Shown here piece by piece: positions 8,054-56,371 of a stretch of DNA of 64,000 nt (position 1 is its first letter; each line of letters starts with the position of its first letter). This DNA comes from a virus (lineage: Duplodnaviria > Caudoviricetes). The stretch spans positions 1-64,000 of IMG/VR virus record IMGVR_UViG_3300033463_000086; one strand, 5' to 3'. A model generated the notes under the pieces. It was not told the DNA's origin, ran no database searches, and saw only the letters and a list, made by a program, of their open reading frames with translations. The position numbers were made by a program, and so were the translations under genes.

Positions 8054-9120
8054 ACTTCACCTATAACCTGTCCGCAAGTTGGGCAAACAGTACCGACCAG
8101 AGCATGAAGTTTGTCCTCGTACTCTTTATACATGTTCTTTGCCTGTTTTCCTTGCTGAACCAATGTTTTGAATGTGGATTGTTCGGCTTGCAGTTCGTTG
8201 AGGTTTTGACGGTACTCAACAATGTCGTGCTGAATACGGCTGAGTGAGATAATGTCAGATTCAGCCTCAGTGATGTTATTGTTCTGCAACTTGACAACAA
8301 CATCCTTGAGCTGGCTTCTCAACAGTCTGATTTCGTACAGCTCGTTATACTGCTCATCCGCAACCTGTTTGAGTTGTTCCAGTACACACAGGTCTTTATC
8401 TGCATCGGCGTAGCGTTCATAACCAGCCATAGCACGTTGAATCCAAAACAGCTTGTCTTTGTACTCGGTGATTGCTCTTAGTTCTTCTTGCAATTTAACG
8501 CAAACATCACGGTCGGCAGTATATGCTTTCAGCAGTCCAGCCGCCATGTCAACATCAGCGTAAAAGGCAAGCTCTTCTTTAGCCTTTGAGATACAGACTT
8601 TGAGTTTCTCCACATTATCGGCAGTCTGTTTGACATAGCGATTTGTGTTTGACGTAACAGTCTGAATCTCATTAAGGTCAAGCATCGTACTGAACTGTTC
8701 CGCTGTTTCAGAGCCTTTGTAGTAGACCATAAACGGCAAATCTCGTCTGTCCTGAATTGAGATAGCGTCCATGTTCACCAGTAATGCAATATCACCGGGT
8801 ACACTGGTTCTGAATGACTTATACAGATTATCATTCAACTTGTAGGTATTGCTTGAGGCACTGTACGACCTCTCAATTACATTACCATCAATCGTTGCTG
8901 ATACGGTGCATTTCTGAGTGCCGTGTTTGACGAGTTTGCTTGAATCCCCGTCATTCATCAACACCCACTTCAACCCACGGAATATGGCTGTCTTACCTGA
9001 ATCCGTAGGTCCTGTGATAACGTTGACACCTTCAATGAAGTTCAACGTAATGTTCTCGTGTTTCTGTAGATTGGTAGCTTTTAATTGCTCAATCATCGAA
9101 ACCTCCTGTATTGTTCTCAA
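8050..9120 (-). CDS. sbcC: SbcC/Rad50-like ATPase, N-terminal half
   Basis: Walker A GPTDSGKT, Q-loop SIQD, coiled coil, ending at the zinc-hook motif CPTCG. Confidence 0.85.
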   Translation of the reverse strand: MRTIQEVSMIEQLKATNLQKHENITLNFIEGVNVITGPTDSGKTAIFRGLKWVLMNDGDSSKLVKHGTQKCTVSATIDGNVIERSYSASSNTYKLNDNLYKSFRTSVPGDIALLVNMDAISIQDRRDLPFMVYYKGSETAEQFSTMLDLNEIQTVTSNTNRYVKQTADNVEKLKVCISKAKEELAFYADVDMAAGLLKAYTADRDVCVKLQEELRAITEYKDKLFWIQRAMAGYERYADADKDLCVLEQLKQVADEQYNELYEIRLLRSQLKDVVVKLQNNNITEAESDIISLSRIQHDIVEYRQNLNELQAEQSTFKTLVQQGKQAKNMYKEYEDKLHALVGTVCPTCGQVIGEV

Positions 9121-48683: not shown

Positions 48684-48901
48684 AATCGTTACTCCATTAT
48701 TTAGTTTGTTTTGGTTTGAAATGAACTTATCGACAAAGGTTTATGCCGATAACGGTTTAGTTCCATATCCTCCTAAATATGGAAACGTTGGTTGATACTC
48801 TAACTTAAATCATAAAGCACCGAATGAACCGATGCCTTATGATTTAGATTAGAATGTAGGCGGCAGTAATGAAACCACCGCCCATATCCAAGAACCGAAT
48901 G

Positions 48902-51038
48902 TCAGAACTTATCATTGTCAACATAATGAAAGTTCAAATTGATGTCGCCCTGATTATGCAACCACTCATATGCAGGGTGGAAATCATACAGACTGGTCAC
49001 ATAAACGCGATTGTGAGCCACCTGAAACACATAGTTGCACAAAGGAGCCTCAACATATGCATCAGCCCACTGGTCATTGAATAAATCACGACCAACGACC
49101 TCTTCCATTACCAACGTGCCAGCCCATTTCAGATACAGGAAATTGTCATGCATTAATGTAACTGCCGCCGTGTCCCTGATGTAGTCCACAAGTTCTTTCA
49201 GCGTCATTGTGAAACCTGCGCGAATGACGATAAACTCGCGTTCGCCATACTTATCCGTAAGATTGAACTTATGGATGCCGAACTCTTGACCCTCTCCGTA
49301 TGTGGCTGAGGTGGAATGTACGTAAGACATTTTAATATCCACAATGTCGAACGTACCATCTTCGTTGATTTCGATTTCGTGTTGCATAGTTTTCTCCTTA
49401 TGCGGTTAAATCCATGTTTCAAAGAGGTCATCGAAATTGAACATAATAGGAACCGTCAGCAAGTCATTCTTCTTGCCGTAGTCCATAATGCGCTTCAGTT
49501 CGCTGTCCTCAACATTGAATTTATTGTACGAAATGTGCTTGGCGACTGTGTATGCCCTTGACGTGAACCAGACATCCTTATGGTTAGTCGGTATCACCAT
49601 TCTCTCCAACAGTTCCTTACAGAAAATGTCGTTGGGGATAGTGCTGAATGTGCCTTTCTTTGCATGTTCGAGGAAATACCACAAATGTTCACGGTATGGA
49701 TTTGCGAACAATGTCACCACAGTTATCGGTCTTTCCCATATTTGGAACCGATGAACGTATCTTCTTTCCACATAGTCTTTTATCTTGACCGGGAATGAAG
49801 ACGTTCCGTGATAGACCCCATAACCATTTGAGGTCAGTTGGAAGTCGTGTTGCATTAGATGTCTCCTTAATGATTACGAAAGCGAACCAGCCCATACATA
49901 CTGGCATGGGTGATTTTTCATATCTTTGAGGACGATGGGCTGAACCCATTTGGAGTTGCCTTTATCCCATATTGTACGATAAGCGTTTACCATGATGAAA
50001 CAGATAAGACGCCATTCTTCAGAAGTCATCCATCCATAAGCCCTCTCATCCCAATCCAAATGAAACAGATGATAGGCAACGTACAAGCACATAAGAACCT
50101 CGACTTCATGACCTATGCAACCAGTCATATCGTAGTGTTTCTCATACGCAAGCCGGAAGAAGTAGTATAAGTCATTCGCAGTGGGTTTCTTTCCTTTCGG
50201 ATGCGGAACTACGATTGATGTTTTGTAGACACCACGATAGACCACGGCATAACTGGTGAATGTTATTGCCTTTTTGTACTTTTTCGGATAATTGCTCAAC
50301 TTTGCATTACAGTCAAGCACATCCTCCAATTCTATGAAGTTTGTGTTTCTCATTGAATACCGCCTTTCGTTTTCTTAATGCGGTCAATCGTATCGGCAAT
50401 CCTGTCAGAAATGCCGAAGTCGTGAACATCTTCTTCAATCAGCATAACGAGGAAGATGCAGGTGAAGAGAATTGGGATAGCGAAAATGACCAATTCCACA
50501 AATTGTTCAATGCTCATTTTGTTTCCTTTCTTGTTTGGTTAGATGTTGAAGAAACGCTCCATCGGGTCGAAGCCATAGTAATCTTCGACATACGAATCAG
50601 CAATTTCAGGTTCTTTCTGAATGTTCTTAACGAACTCAACAGCCTCATCTATGGTGTTAAAGTAGTGTTGCCGTAATTCAATGTCATGGTCGTTGCAGGT
50701 GATATAAATGGAGTAAGAGAGTTCAGGGTCAAGTTCATAAATCTCAAACTCTGCACCATTTTTAGTGATTGTCTTGACGAGTTTCATAATAACTCCAAAA
50801 GTAAAGCCCTGCCGCATTTCTTTGGCAGGGCTTGTGTGGTTGTTTGAATGACTTACTCGTTACGCCATTCATCGAACTTGAAGTCGGGGTTCGCATCGCG
50901 TACAAGGTGCGACTCGTCCCACGCATTCTGAAGCCGATTGCGGAGGTCATTCATGTTGATGGATTCGAGAAACTCCATCACATCGCAAACGGTCTGTTCT
51001 GCGTTTCTCATGGTTTCTTTGACGGTTTTGTTGCCCAT
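48902..51038 (-). other. Group of early hypothetical genes (48902, 49406, 49874, 50539, 50853)
   Basis: Co-directional ORFs of 61-161 aa with RBS. Confidence 0.7.
50804..50833 (-). terminator. Intrinsic terminator inside the early operon
   Basis: 10-bp stem AAGCCCTGCC/GGCAGGGCTT followed on the - strand by TTACTTTT. Confidence 0.7.
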
Positions 51039-51059
51039 TTTAGTACCTTTCCTGTTTGG

Positions 51060-51745
51060 TGTTTATGGACTGATTAGAATGCACCGGATTGTGCATTCTT
51101 GACAATCTACAAACCCCCGTAGGGAATGGCGTATAGGGCTTATCTGCCGCAGCATGCTTATCTATACGCCATTGTTGTTGCAATATTTAGGACTCAATAT
51201 TGCCATTCGTTAATCTATAGGGCGGAAGTATCATTGAATAATTATTACGTTTTGATTTTAAGTTTATTGAATAATTTATCTTTGATACATTTTAATTTTT
51301 GTCGCTATTGTCAATCATAGCGGAGAATTAGGACTTATTCATCGGGGTTTGTGCCGAAAGTAATGGGCTGCCTTTCTCAATGCCGCTGATATTGTTGTAT
51401 ATCACCCATTCTCTCCTACTTTGCATCGCTTATTAGTGTAGTTTCTATGCCCGTGTTCGCGTGTAAGTATTCTTGCATTTAACTATATTTCTCACTGACC
51501 GTATGCCAAAAGGTCTGCGATAGCATTTTGGACTTATGCCTTATCGCAGAGATAGGACAGAGTACATTCCATCACTATTCTGCTTTATGGGCTGACGGCT
51601 AACCCCCTACCGAAATGCAAGACCGTAGTCCTATTGCATACCGTAGTATACTGCATTCGGAAATCGGGTATTACATAGGAATCCCCGTCAACCGAATGTC
51701 AAAGAACACCACCTGGGCGGCGAATGAACGCCCCGTCCCACAGGA
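51060..51745 (-). ncRNA. Candidate large structured non-coding RNA or leader
   Basis: ORF-free, starts just downstream of a consensus promoter, many hairpins including three C(UACG)G tetraloops on the - strand. Confidence 0.55.
51697..51708 (-). promoter_or_regulatory. boxA-like antitermination element (TGTTCTTTGACA)
   Basis: 10/12 match to rrn boxA TGCTCTTTAACA, directly after a GC hairpin and a promoter; exact second copy at 54469..54480. Confidence 0.5.
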
Positions 51746-51748
51746 TAC

Positions 51749-51951
51749 TATAATATAGCACTTCATTAGCCAAAGTCAAGCCCTCATTTTGACAATTTTC
51801 CGAATGTTTTTGAAATTTTTTATCGAAAGTTATCATTGTTACTTAACGTAAATGCTTAACGTATCTTTAACGTTACCTGTCTTCATAAATAAGGTATAGC
51901 ACGTCATAATCAAAAGTCAAGCCCTCATTTTGACAATTTTCCGAATGTTTT
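51749..51951 (-). promoter_or_regulatory. Tandem promoters sharing a 39-bp direct repeat
   Basis: AAAGTCAAGCCCTCATTTTGACAATTTTCCGAATGTTTT at 51772..51810 and 51913..51951; each contains the TTGACT -35 of a leftward promoter. Confidence 0.8.
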
Positions 51952-52065
51952 ACCCTATACGGAATCTTATCTACATTTGCGGTAAAACTCAAGCATTATC
52001 CGTATCGGCAGTGCATTAGTTATCCGCATTTGTATGAAGATTGTGTATATGTAAAGTTATCCTGA

Positions 52066-52129
52066 TTATACCCTATCGGGACTATTTTAGCCATTTTATC
52101 CGATTTTATACCCTATCGGGACTATTTTA
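52066..52129. repeat. 24-bp direct repeat x2 (iteron-like)
   Basis: TTATACCCTATCGGGACTATTTTA at 52066 and 52106. Confidence 0.85.
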
Positions 52130-52183
52130 TCTATGGTCTAACATTAATCATATGGTTGTTAATGACGGTTTATCGAATGTAAT

Positions 52184-52526
52184 AAAAAGTTAGTCCAGCC
52201 TAAGTCATTCAAAGCGCCACTATTAGAGTTTACATTTGTTTTTTACTCGTTTTTAATGATAGGTGTGTTGGTGTAATAGTGATGCGGTGTACTATAACAG
52301 TAATACACCTATGGTATAAATTTAATTAATACTGAGTGTCATTTTGGTGGCAGTTTGTATTTATGGTGGCACTGTGTCATTATAAAAACAGGGTGTAAGT
52401 GTTCTCCGCCCGACACCAGCATTTCATAACTTAGGCTGGACTAACTTATGTAAATAACTGACACTCAAATATTTACAACTTACATAACAATAAATACACA
52501 TAAATGACTTAGGCTCAACTAACTTT
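52184..52526. repeat. Three-copy pseudo-palindromic site, one copy inverted
   Basis: AAGTTAGTCCAGCCTAAGT (52187..52205), its exact reverse complement (52429..52447), and a 2-mismatch inverted copy (52502..52526). Confidence 0.85.
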
Positions 52527-52956
52527 TGAAGTATGTTATGTTTGAATATACCGACAAAGGCATAATCATAAAATGAAATGCAACGACGAATGAAATGCCA
52601 GCCCTCATTTATAACAATATTATATAGTGTGCTAAACTGTTGCCTATGCCGATGGTTATAACGATGAACATTCTCAATTCCATTCAATGAAATGTCACCA
52701 TTATTATCTCATCCACATAACGACAACGACAACGATGAAGATGAACATTGAAAACGATAGCGAATGAAATGCCAATGCCGACGTTTACATTCCATAACGA
52801 CAAAGACAACGATGAAGATGCCGACAGATAAAGCCATACCGACGATTATGCCGATGACTATATACATTCACATTCGTTCGTATGACCTAATAGTTCGTTC
52901 ATAAAAATATCTTTAATAGAAAAATAATAATTTGCAAAAAGGCGGCAAAAAATAAA

Positions 52957-52982
52957 AAGGCCGCCGCGAGAGCGGCGGCCTT
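52957..52982 (-). terminator. Intrinsic terminator
   Basis: 11-bp stem AAGGCCGCCGC/GCGGCGGCCTT, 4-nt loop, U-tract on the - strand, right after the 52993..53256 stop. Confidence 0.85.
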
Positions 52983-52992
52983 GTCGGCCTTG

Positions 52993-53256
52993 TTAGAGCT
53001 GGCCTTTTGTCAATCTCGGCAAGATTGTATTTTCAAAGATAAAGCTCGCAATCTCGGCGGCTAAATTGTCGGCCTCGGCTTCGGCCTCAGTTTTTGCCGC
53101 TTCGGCCTCGGCTTCGGCTATCGCCTCGGCTTCGGCCTTTGACAAAAGATAGATAGTTAAATCTAACTCTTGTTTCAACTCTTCGAGCTTATCTTCGAGC
53201 TTGTCTTTGTGACGTCTAAGAGTAGAGATTCTTTGTGATAACTTGTCGTTTTTCAC
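52993..53256 (-). CDS. Small Ala/Glu-rich coiled-coil protein (GTG start)
   Basis: 87 aa, AAGGA RBS, followed by a terminator. Confidence 0.6.
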   Translation of the reverse strand: MKNDKLSQRISTLRRHKDKLEDKLEELKQELDLTIYLLSKAEAEAIAEAEAEAAKTEAEAEADNLAAEIASFIFENTILPRLTKGQL

Positions 53257-53293
53257 TTTTGTTTTTCCTTTGTTTTAAGTTGTTTGTTTTTGT

Positions 53294-54068
53294 GCTATTG
53301 TGCTTTATTGTGCCGCTTGTCGGTTAGGTTTTTTGTTTGTTGTTGTTTGTTGTTGGAGTTGTTTACTTTGCGGCGGCCTTTTCGGCCTTGTCGGCGGCTT
53401 CGGCGGCCTTTTCAATAGCCGCTTTTAAGCTGTTGTTGTATTTTTCTATTGTTGCGGCTTCGGAGAGCGGCACAATAACAACAGCAAAGCCGAGGAGGCG
53501 GAGAATAAGAATAAACCTTTTCCAGTAGCCGTACTGACCGCAACTTGTTGCACCTGAGTCGATAAGCTGTTTTTGTGTATAGTCAACAGCGAGGGCCGAA
53601 GAGAGAGCAACTGCGGCTTGCCGCAAGTCGTTTTTTGTGACTTGTTTGTCTTTTGCGGCCTTTTCGGCCTTGTCGGCTTCGGCCTTTGTGCCTTCAGAAG
53701 CTTTCTTTGCGGCTTCGGCCTTTGCCTTTGCTTCGGCGGCGGCTTTGTCGGCCTTTGCGGCTTCGGCCTTTGCGGCCTTTGCGGCTTCGGCGGCTTTGCT
53801 TGCCTTGTCAATCTTACCGCTTGAGAGCAACTCAAGAGCGGCGGCGGCCTTGTCGGCGGCTTCGGCCTTTGCGGCTTCGGCCTTGACTTCGGCGGCCTTT
53901 GCTACTAACTCAAGAGCGGCGGCGGCCTTGTCGGCTTCGGCGGCCTTTGCTTTGAGCTTTTCGAGAGCGGAGAGCGGAGAGAGAGAACGAACGAACGAAA
54001 AGATTGTTTCAAACGTAATCACTTTTTGACTGCACTTTCTAACAAGCGGCACAATAAAGCACAATAGC
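53294..54068. repeat. Perfect 27-bp inverted repeat flanking the Ala/Lys-rich gene
   Basis: GCTATTGTGCTTTATTGTGCCGCTTGT (53294..53320) and its exact reverse complement (54042..54068). Confidence 0.92.
53363..54022 (-). CDS. Ala/Lys/Glu-rich low-complexity protein (histone H1/TolA-like composition)
   Basis: Long open frame of AAEADKAAAALEL-type repeats (29-bp repeat at 53829 and 53907). Start uncertain: GTG at 54022 or 54121. Confidence 0.6.
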   Translation of the reverse strand: MITFETIFSFVRSLSPLSALEKLKAKAAEADKAAAALELVAKAAEVKAEAAKAEAADKAAAALELLSSGKIDKASKAAEAAKAAKAEAAKADKAAAEAKAKAEAAKKASEGTKAEADKAEKAAKDKQVTKNDLRQAAVALSSALAVDYTQKQLIDSGATSCGQYGYWKRFILILRLLGFAVVIVPLSEAATIEKYNNSLKAAIEKAAEAADKAEKAAAK

Positions 54069-54957
54069 GAGAGAGTTGTATATTTTTCAAAGAGCAACAG
54101 CCGAAAAACAAGCGGCTTCACAAAAGAAAAGATTTTTAGAGTTATTTTATACAGTTTTTATTGAATAAATTATAACGTTTACACAATACACTATAAATAA
54201 GCACGTTACAGAATACAGCAATAAACTAATAGTTCGGCATTCCTAATTACTTTGCCGCAAAGAAAAAGTCTTAACCTATTGATAATCAAAGAGTTGCACC
54301 AAATTAGATTTAGTAAGGCGGCTGGGACCCTATAGAGTACCTCACACATACAATCCACATTTTCAAAACCCATCAATAAAATCACTTACTGCAATTCCCT
54401 ATAAATAAGTAAATTACAGTATAGGATTATTTGCACCAGTTTATAAATCAAGGATATATGTATTAAACTGTCAAAGAACAAAACAAATTGACTTATGACA
54501 AAACGCTACTGAGAACTTTGCAATAATGAGCGTAAAGTTTGCATTATCGTCTACACTTATTGATATTTATAGACACTTTGGCGCATAACTGGTACGAAAA
54601 ATGTGCCAAATAACTGCAAAACTGGTTGGAAAAATGTGCCAAAGTGCCATTTAAGGGTAATATTTGCACTTTGGATTGCACTTTGGAATACTTGCTTCAA
54701 ATACATCAAATATGACGCAATTCTTTATAAAATACGCTCGAAAATGCTATATTTGATTGATTGTACGTTTGAAATTTAGTTGACATGTTGACCTAATTTC
54801 TAACAAAACAGCTATAATGATATAAAATTATGCACACAGAGGTAATGACAACCATATGATTAATGTCTGTTTTTGGATTAATGTCTGTATAATAAAAAGA
54901 CACGTACAGAAGCGGCAACTAATGTACGTGTCAAAGCAGAGGAGCCAAGATATGCGA

Positions 54958-55161
54958 TTAAGAATGTTTTTGTTTCAGTTCATAAAGAAGAATGGTATAT
55001 GCGATAATTTCTTCAATGTACTTATATAGCCAGCGTTTATCGTCATCATCAAGTTCAAATGGAATACGATTTATGAGTAATTTCTTTTTGAGTAGGTGGT
55101 TTTCATGTTTAAGTCGTGTGTTTTCTTGAATGTAGTATTGTTCATTCATAGCTAATCTCAA
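54958..55161 (-). CDS. Hypothetical protein
   Basis: 67 aa overlapping the polymerase-like gene stop. Confidence 0.45.
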   Translation of the reverse strand: MRLAMNEQYYIQENTRLKHENHLLKKKLLINRIPFELDDDDKRWLYKYIEEIIAYTILLYELKQKHS

Positions 55162-56371
55162 TGTTATGGCGTGTAAGATTATGGTAGCAGTTTCTCATAA
55201 GGGTAATGACAGAGCTAACATCGGATTCACGGCAAATACAGGAATCGTGGACAGGAATGATTGGGATATTAATTGATTTGGCAAGTTCAAGGATAGAAAG
55301 CATCAGTTCGGAATCGGCGTTTTGAAGTCTGAGACCAAAGTTATCGTCAGCAAAGAAATGTTCACGGATAGCAGAATGACGTTCAAGCATTTTGGATATA
55401 GCAAGTTCAACATCAAGGTAGTTGTATTTGTTTTTGACGTAAGGATTTTCAAGGATGGCGTTAATGGCTTGATTTCGTGTTGTGCAGTTAAGAGAGATAA
55501 GGATGACCTTCTTGGCAAACTTACGGTCCGGTACGAAGTCATAAGCATCGCCAACAAGTTCTTTTCCGTTAAGGTTATAGGCAAGATTGATATGGAGGCA
55601 GTGGAAATCCGGTTCGACTGTTGCTTCTCCGTTGATTTCTATGGTCTTGCGTTCAGATTTTTTGAGGGTCTGATATGTAAAACCGTTGCCATCAGTACAG
55701 GTAGCATACAATCTTCCACCATGTTCCCAATCCTCAGTATAGACAGATTGAAGGTTGATGCGGAGGCGTTTCTTTTCGTTGTTCTTAATGCAGGTAACAA
55801 GGACAGAATCAGAGTAATAAGCGTTCAGGGATTCAATAGAGTGTTTTTTCGCTAAGATGTTGGTAGGTAAAGAGTTAAAATCAAGTTTAATGTCGTGTTT
55901 GTTCTTTTTAAGGCGTATGGTATTGGTGTGTTTGGTGTTGAAAATGTGTTTATGAGCTTTGTTCTTGGTATTGAAAATGAAAGTTAAGGCTTCAGTGGCA
56001 AAATATCTGGAACGGTAATTGTTTACATTGGAAATCAAGTCTTTATGCCCCTTGATTTCTTTAAGATAGCCACGATTGACAAGGAAATCAAGGACTGCAT
56101 TGAGCTTGCGGACCGAGATTTTCTGTTCCTTTAAGGTGGTTGTCTTGTTGTATGCCGCCCAAACGTGACAATCTCTGGACACGTAGAAGCCAGTCCCGCA
56201 CATTGACGTATAAAGAGCGTTGCACAGAACCATTGTAAGGTACTTCTTGGCGTCAACAGTATTAATTTCCTTGGCAAACCCATCAATAAGTGGTTCGACT
56301 TCCGGGAAATTGAGTTCTGCGATAACGTCAATCGGTTTGGCTTGTCTGATTTGAGTTGTTTTCGTGTCCAT
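55142..56371 (-). CDS. Minimal PolA / T7-RNAP-superfamily polymerase-like protein
   Basis: GGRLY...YQTL...R, motif A VEPDFHCLH, motif B RKFAKK (R-x3-K), LQNADSEL, motif C IPVHDS; no exonuclease domain. Confidence 0.72.
   Translation of the reverse strand: MDTKTTQIRQAKPIDVIAELNFPEVEPLIDGFAKEINTVDAKKYLTMVLCNALYTSMCGTGFYVSRDCHVWAAYNKTTTLKEQKISVRKLNAVLDFLVNRGYLKEIKGHKDLISNVNNYRSRYFATEALTFIFNTKNKAHKHIFNTKHTNTIRLKKNKHDIKLDFNSLPTNILAKKHSIESLNAYYSDSVLVTCIKNNEKKRLRINLQSVYTEDWEHGGRLYATCTDGNGFTYQTLKKSERKTIEINGEATVEPDFHCLHINLAYNLNGKELVGDAYDFVPDRKFAKKVILISLNCTTRNQAINAILENPYVKNKYNYLDVELAISKMLERHSAIREHFFADDNFGLRLQNADSELMLSILELAKSINIPIIPVHDSCICRESDVSSVITLMRNCYHNLTRHNIEISYE

Follow-up and report, generated by a model that had tools for sequence, protein, structure and literature searches.

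Bacterial and phage RNAs longer than about 400 nt and with many conserved helices are rare, and the known large classes are few: ribosomal RNAs, RNase P, group I and II introns, OLE, ROOL, GOLLD, and HEARO. Each of these, to our knowledge, performs sophisticated chemistry or forms unusual assemblies. The put RNA is made of two stem-loops and spans about 70 nt; EAR spans about 120 nt. A large screen of phage structured RNAs has been published (PMC10690425), and structures of ROOL and GOLLD have been solved by cryo-EM (bioRxiv 10.1101/2024.12.08.627333). The antitermination-conferring regions of the conAn2 RNA, from conjugative plasmids of Gram-positive bacteria, measure 260-600 nt, put being far smaller (PMC8191782), and conAn2, put, and EAR all act in cis on the transcribing polymerase, whatever genes follow (PMC8191782; for HK022 put, PMC9378689).

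The window analysed here is a stretch of 64,000 nucleotides, bases 1-64000 of a 76,348-bp IMG/VR virus record which ends in a 127-bp terminal repeat and probably represents a circular assembly; 127 bp is a common assembler k-mer length, and the repeat was therefore not used to place the genome ends. The minus strand of the window from 51746 to 51039 specifies an RNA of about 700 nt that is present in one copy, codes for no protein, and is highly structured, bounded on its 3′ side by the ATG of the first early ORF at 51038 and with a predicted 5′ start at about 51746. The element is a new RNA family, without a match among the Rfam 15 models, of a known general kind, the large structured phage RNA or operon leader; the evidence that it folds and is transcribed is strong.

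Relatives, promoters, and coding potential

A cmscan of the window against Rfam 15 at gathering thresholds returned four tRNAs only, and searches of Rfam 15 with the region, three relatives, and L008 at E values up to 5-10 gave no match in the element, which is therefore not ROOL, GOLLD, or EAR by covariance model; 6S, tmRNA, RNase P, introns, and riboswitches are likewise excluded as far as Rfam models reach. Homologs, sought by neighboring proteins, invariant core words, and alignment, comprise seven distinct sequences in five lineages, all from one clade of uncultured bovine-gut phages: the window; L002 (identical to L012); L006 (identical to L007); L014; L015; L016 (identical to L026 and L027); and L008. 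The relatives are 60-73% identical to the window overall, nhmmer finds one copy of the element in the phage genome, and the sequencing runs in which parts of the stretch occur are annotated as bovine gut metagenomes. L016 was the sole addition from protein-anchored searches, and several P0007-type and window-type phage contigs, listed without DNA, lie outside the seven-sequence set. Scans of IMG/VR, JGI metagenomes, and GTDB species genomes with invariant core words revealed no carriers beyond the known relatives; a blastn comparison of the region with 50,697 deposited phage records gave no match, and the terminase of the window is 34% identical to its best match in deposited phages. Pattern matches in L004, L005, L010, L011, L013, L020, L022, and L023 were dismissed as chance by blastn and nhmmer.

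The preliminary description placed the start of the RNA a few nucleotides downstream of a leftward promoter, and so it is: the predicted start lies about 6 nt past the strong extended -10 of promoter P2 (51752..51779, minus strand), which consists of TTGACT (51779..51774), a spacer of 16 nt, and TGCTATATT with its -10 hexamer at 51757..51752. P2 is kept in all relatives and belongs to a phage-wide promoter consensus, TTGACTTT...GTGCTATATTAT, found at about 8 sites where 0.25 would be expected; it is a strong sigma-70-type early promoter. A weaker copy on the same strand, P1 (51893..51920), lies 141 nt upstream of P2 and reads TTGACT followed by a -10-like TATACC. Both promoters fall within the direct repeat D8 (57 nt, 51754-51810 and 51895-51951, 93% identical), and the tandem layout is retained in L008 and L016; no RNA contig starting from P1 was seen, which does not show that P1 is silent. 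Between P1 and P2 lie three ACGTTA(A) boxes (51830..51868, minus strand), kept in L015 and L016 though the neighboring DNA has diverged, which may serve as an operator, perhaps for a repressor. Two further promoter candidates inside the element, TTGGCA-16-TATAGT in the core and one starting from a TTGACA in a hairpin loop, were rejected since the -10 of neither is conserved in relatives.

Upstream of the element, between a strong terminator (52982..52957) and the tandem promoters, about 1.2 kb of DNA (51760-52960) contains no ORF. It holds a 29-nt repeat family (51948, 52066, and 52106), a 28-nt family (52716 and 52793), and a word of about 25 nt in three copies and both orientations (52185, 52419, and 52503), and a similar gene-free gap of about 2 kb is present in all relatives. 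We regard this region as a candidate origin or operator region.

The element itself has no credible ORF, as the preliminary description had stated; the longest are 47 and 32 aa, and translation of short ORFs is not supported. Six of the seven sequences have an open 28-aa frame in the core, and an encoded small protein was considered on this account, along with the idea that the structures act in DNA as cruciforms or single-strand hairpins, the opposite strand also folding better than its shuffles (see below). Both proposals are largely refuted and we consider them very improbable: the 28-aa frame is shifted in the window and has no ribosome-binding site; its substitutions by codon position (7/6/6 in L008, 2/4/1 in L016) lack the third-position bias of a coding sequence; the window and its close relative L002 differ in the core by three single-base indels, which together with the substitution pattern excludes coding there; the kinds of mismatch tolerated in the helices favor RNA of the minus strand; and contigs from RNA libraries contain the element.

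Fold and compensatory change

The window RNA has a minimum free energy of -208.7 kcal/mol, compared with a mean of -171.9 kcal/mol for shuffled sequences (z -5.1, against -4.1 for the opposite strand); for the L008 element the z-scores are -3.7 and -2.3, respectively. On the alignment of the seven distinct sequences (A5), RNAalifold yields a consensus of 163 pairs in about 28-30 helices. Counting as a cell one pair position in one sequence, over all seven sequences, 93.5% of cells are paired, a share that falls to 38-42% once the partners are shifted by 1-3 columns; double (compensatory) changes occur in 51 pairs, compared with 7-13 after such shifting and 18 in shuffles, and none of 500 shuffles reaches the observed value of any of five measures. 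G-U cells number 118 and A-C cells 16, an asymmetry which identifies the folded molecule as RNA of the minus strand. The claim that the leftward strand carries a novel large structured non-coding RNA is supported by strong compensatory changes, by the G-U/A-C asymmetry, by the lack of an Rfam match, and by contigs from RNA libraries. Among related phages, compensating mutations maintain the folds.

From its 5′ end, the element begins with a compound hairpin (helices 1 and 2; 51709..51746, this and all following features on the minus strand) in which 6 pairs have double changes; the hairpin and the U-rich run after it also score as a weak terminator. Directly 3′ of the hairpin lies an unpaired boxA-like sequence, TGTTCTTTGACA (51697..51708), identical in the L002 group, altered by one change in L016, kept in six sequences overall, and replaced in L008 by TGCTCATTCTCA. 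It resembles the boxA consensus of rrn operons, from which the boxA of the host may differ; a literature search for the word retrieved primer lists only. A second exact copy of TGTTCTTTGACA occurs on the same strand at 54469-54480, with neither the phage promoter consensus nor an obvious hairpin before it. There follows a 5′ multi-helix domain (51590..51693) closed by GGTTGACGG/CCGTCAGCC and holding a conserved C(UACG)G hairpin; its closing stem (helix 4) has double changes in 6 of 9 pairs, and helices 6 and 8 covary too. The next feature is a variable hairpin insert (51546..51583), extended in the window and L016 and reduced or missing in the remaining sequences, whose closing helix 9 has double changes in 3 of 4 pairs.

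The conserved core (51303..51541) is about 240 nt long and contains about 10 helices, of which 13, 18, 19, and 23 covary, as well as long invariant unpaired runs. It is separated by a poorly conserved A/U-rich linker (51204..51302), of which only about 35 nt are left in L008, from a 3′ domain (51059..51203). That domain has one hairpin, then an 11-bp stem enclosing an internal loop with a UNCG hairpin, then CCCTACGGGG, and it ends in a hairpin within TTATGG/CCATAA. Helices 25-28 and 30 of this domain contribute 14 pairs with double changes. The 11-bp stem (51172..51162 with 51136..51126) occurs in four different versions, each perfectly complementary; the hairpin next upstream of it is swapped in relatives for unrelated self-complementary sequences; and a UNCG hairpin retains its C-G closing pair while its stem is altered in three ways. 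The element has neither a terminator of its own nor a defined 3′ end, and its structure reaches the first start codon. A Shine-Dalgarno-like GGAAAGG and the first ORF, a lineage-specific one of 61 aa, follow (50853..51051), and then, between early ORFs 1 and 2, a strong intrinsic terminator (50797..50831) with an 8-bp GC-rich stem and a U-tail (-16.1 kcal/mol).

Most of the stems named in the preliminary description reappear in the consensus. The 5′ GC hairpin and the AGAATGCAC hairpin are backed by covariation, AATGGG/CCCATT forms part of a helix (51413..51404 with 51368..51358) with 4 double changes, the stem given there as 12 bp is the 11- to 12-bp helix in four versions just described, and at the position of the GCAATATT hairpin relatives carry other self-complementary sequences. 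Two pairings fared less well: CATTCGG/CCGAATG is not conserved in relatives, and TCTGCGATA/TATCGCAGA is at most partly kept, a long-range alternative fitting better. The proposed long-range pair TTGACAAT/ATTGTCAA is intermediate, with 8 of 8 or 7 of 8 pairs in four sequences but weaker pairing in two and uncompensated loss in L008. All three C(UACG)G loops are where they had been reported (CTACGG at 51117, 51623, and 51641, minus strand), and two of the three are conserved in relatives; with 3 occurrences in 706 nt compared with 19 on the same strand in 64 kb, CTACGG is about 14 times denser in the element. A fourth, conserved UNCG loop (51152..51145) sits on a covarying stem and reads UGCG in the window and UACG elsewhere.

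Transcription and the surrounding block

Contigs of four bovine-gut metatranscriptome studies contain the element. In X3, a 463-nt contig corresponds to 51270..51732 and thus ends inside the A/U-rich linker at 51270, separate contigs cover the early genes, and one of these (48881-51084) crosses the terminator at 50831..50797; in X6, a 347-nt contig corresponds to 51384..51730. The contigs of these two studies stop at 51732 and 51730 without a loose end, 14-16 nt inside the predicted start, a weak hint that the stops mark the 5′ end. Loose ends in X7 and X8 match L002-type sequence, indicating that relatives are transcribed too. RNA contigs leave 51872-52972 and 51085-51269 uncovered, as well as the early genes in X6-X8, and these gaps are evidence of neither silence nor processing. 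Mean word depth is 85 for the 463-nt contig of X3 and 16-18 for its neighbors; contig depths cannot rank abundance, and accumulation of a processed fragment is no more than hinted at.

At the DNA level, the genes on either side are 93-98% identical between the window and L021/L006, whereas the block from 54500 to 50540 is 71-81% identical or unalignable except for the core; the element therefore sits in a mosaic, fast-evolving block, which resembles an immunity or specificity region exchanged by recombination. Within the element, the core of the window is about 95% identical to that of the L002 lineage while the peripheral helices are just 70-80% alike, and even in L008, whose polymerase gene is 68% identical in DNA, the core is 77.6% identical. 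By sequence comparison, the periphery drifts with compensation while the core is held. Besides the RNA periphery, the block (50540-54500) contains non-coding DNA and Ala/Lys-rich ORFs, one of which (53363-54121) is bracketed by a perfect 27-nt inverted repeat (53294-53320 and 54042-54068, with a 13-nt partial copy at 53466-53478). Beyond the block, 55142-56371 encodes a 409-aa protein with no Pfam match and a strong match to phrog_4756 (unknown function); it is 35-98% conserved in nine metagenomic proteins, always adjoining the terminase.

In all cases the element separates the promoter from the first early gene, and this gene varies by lineage. L002-type phages lack both the 61-aa ORF of the window and the next one (92 aa, 50539-50817), their leader running straight into a 55-aa ORF, and the first gene of L008 is unrelated and encodes 134 aa; 50539-51038, with its two ORFs and the terminator between them, is thus an insertion relative to L002-type phages, and this interval is a variable slot heading the early operon. 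Terminator-like hairpins are found between early genes in the window (50831..50797), L016 (near 2878), and L008 (near 9239); the L006-type early operon, when examined, showed no convincing intergenic terminator. We also note a conserved GC-rich hairpin followed by a UUUUCU run inside a 144/145-aa early gene (L016, about 1403-1443; L008, about 8749-8789), which may be an intragenic attenuator or structured site.

Function and comparison with known systems

With a first gene that varies by lineage, the element is no regulator of one particular gene, and two options are left: it acts in cis on the operon as a whole, or it is simply the RNA made first. Our leading reading, close to the antitermination alternative offered in the preliminary description and held tentatively with a probability of roughly 40%, is that the element is a cis-acting, operon-level leader with a 5′ hairpin and an rrn-type boxA-like module, leaving behind a nuclease-resistant structured fragment. 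The leader would fold during transcription and act in cis on the whole operon: its first 50 nt, the hairpin and then the unpaired boxA-like sequence, would load host Nus-type factors; these, perhaps with the core, would let RNA polymerase withstand both Rho and the intrinsic terminators of the early operon, so that the 700-nt untranslated stretch and the genes behind it could be transcribed regardless of the first gene; and processing in the A/U-rich linker might leave the compact 5′ part (at least 463 nt) to survive as the nuclease-resistant fragment. In favor of such a leader are the constant position between promoter and first gene, with neither a terminator of its own nor a conserved internal promoter; the order of hairpin and boxA-like sequence, retained among the relatives; terminator-like hairpins in three lineages and the X3 contig bridging that of the window; the occurrence in conjugative plasmids of antitermination-conferring leaders 260-600 nt in length (conAn2; PMC8191782); and the consideration that 700 nt of untranslated transcript would be exposed to Rho unless protected. 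Against it, the boxA-like sequence is weakly kept in L008 (TGCTCATTCTCA), the L006-type operon contains no convincing intergenic terminator, the hairpin and U-rich run could instead be a weak attenuator, and about 28 helices and long invariant loops look to exceed the need, known cis antitermination RNAs being much smaller or simpler.

Complexity speaks for the close rival of the leader, a trans-acting stable RNA of a new class, cut from the early transcript and acting on a host or phage partner, which we consider possible although somewhat doubtful; its roles might include host take-over, an anti-defense decoy or sponge, an RNP scaffold, a ribozyme, or a ROOL/GOLLD-like self-assembling RNA. 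Consistent with a trans-acting RNA, the element is large and complex, having some 28 helices and several UNCG loops, and its 240-nt core, in which long unpaired runs are invariant, matches the terminase gene in conservation; the RNA serves no particular gene, the first one being variable; and it is encoded in a hypervariable block heading the early operon, where anti-defense functions may often sit. The separate 463-nt contig that ends in the linker (depth 85 compared with 16-18), and the X6 contig, which covers the element but not the adjoining early genes of the query, are suggestive only. On the other hand, the element has no terminator or defined 3′ end and is structured up to the first start codon, no partner or target was identified, the family is narrow (five lineages), and contigs cannot show a discrete processed species. 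We would assign a similarly limited likelihood to the element being the first representative of a novel class of large ornate phage RNAs, the 240-nt core having a biochemical role of its own; that core might then act as a ribozyme, assemble with protein or with RNA alone, or serve as a decoy disarming a host function early, and the leader position might merely ensure that it is made first and abundantly, a proposal we regard as conceivable, not probable.

The surroundings of the element point to yet another explanation, an origin-associated transcript, either a pre-primer like RNA II or transcriptional activation as at the T7 primary origin. Transcription from the tandem promoters would then carry a folded RNA into A/T-rich DNA next to iterons, and the gene-free DNA upstream (about 51760-52960) with its direct and inverted repeat families, the similar gap in relatives, the A/T-rich linker (51302..51204) within which the X3 contig ends, and a minimum of cumulative GC skew at this place would all be accommodated. 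Yet most of the linker is lost in L008, the conserved and covarying 3′ domain extends past it to the first gene, and the skew minimum coincides with a switch in gene orientation; we think an origin transcript unlikely. A passive long 5′ UTR, with sites for RNase III or other processing, 5′ stabilizers, or hairpins that govern translation of the first gene, as known from the early mRNAs of T7 and SP82, is likewise unlikely: the 11-bp stem with its internal loop and the 3′ domain abutting the ribosome-binding site would suit it, as would helix 3, formed in the RNAalifold consensus between the U-rich 5′ run and the purine-rich site of ribosome binding, but that helix has no double changes and 86% pairing, the first gene is unconserved and gene-specific control hence unlikely, and cleavage sites do not explain the invariant unpaired runs of the core.

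Whichever reading holds, the element has what most candidates lack: strong compensatory evidence from no more than seven sequences, presence in RNA libraries from natural communities, and a defined promoter. Should it prove to be a cis antitermination leader, it would exceed all such RNAs in size and have no precedent in a phage of this type; should it act in trans, it would represent a new early-function RNA of phages. Its place within a rapidly evolving mosaic block, next to a likely origin or operator, means that it may also inform us about early-infection control in abundant uncultured rumen phages.

Compared with known systems, the element shares a promoter-driven folded RNA of about 0.5 kb directed toward an A/T-rich stretch beside repeat-rich non-coding DNA with ColE1 RNA II and the T7 primary origin, but differs in that structure is also present beyond the A/T-rich linker and that L008 can dispense with this linker. 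The rrn leaders and lambda nut sites, where a boxB hairpin and boxA load NusB-NusE, have a likeness in the hairpin and then the unpaired, boxA-like TGTTCTTTGACA, and in a placement no more than 50 nt from an early promoter and upstream of internal terminators; unlike them, the hairpin and boxA-like module makes up the first 7% of the element and is degenerate in L008, and no N-like protein was recognised. Like conAn2, put, and EAR, the element is a structured RNA within a long operon transcript, and in size it is comparable to conAn2 (260-600 nt). However, conAn2 follows and requires the conAn1 gene, whereas the element has no such conserved partner, and since it follows a promoter rather than a gene, and its downstream first ORF differs among lineages, we rejected a bipartite conAn system. 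It is far larger than put or EAR and matches neither in sequence or model (EAR is in Rfam and did not match), and the 5′ region is predicted to form one compound hairpin rather than the put architecture. ROOL and GOLLD are like the element in being several hundred nucleotides long, many-helixed, non-coding, and carried by phages and prophages, and ROOL, like the element, was first seen in rumen data; unlike these stand-alone genes near tRNAs, the element is joined to an early operon, at its 5′ end.
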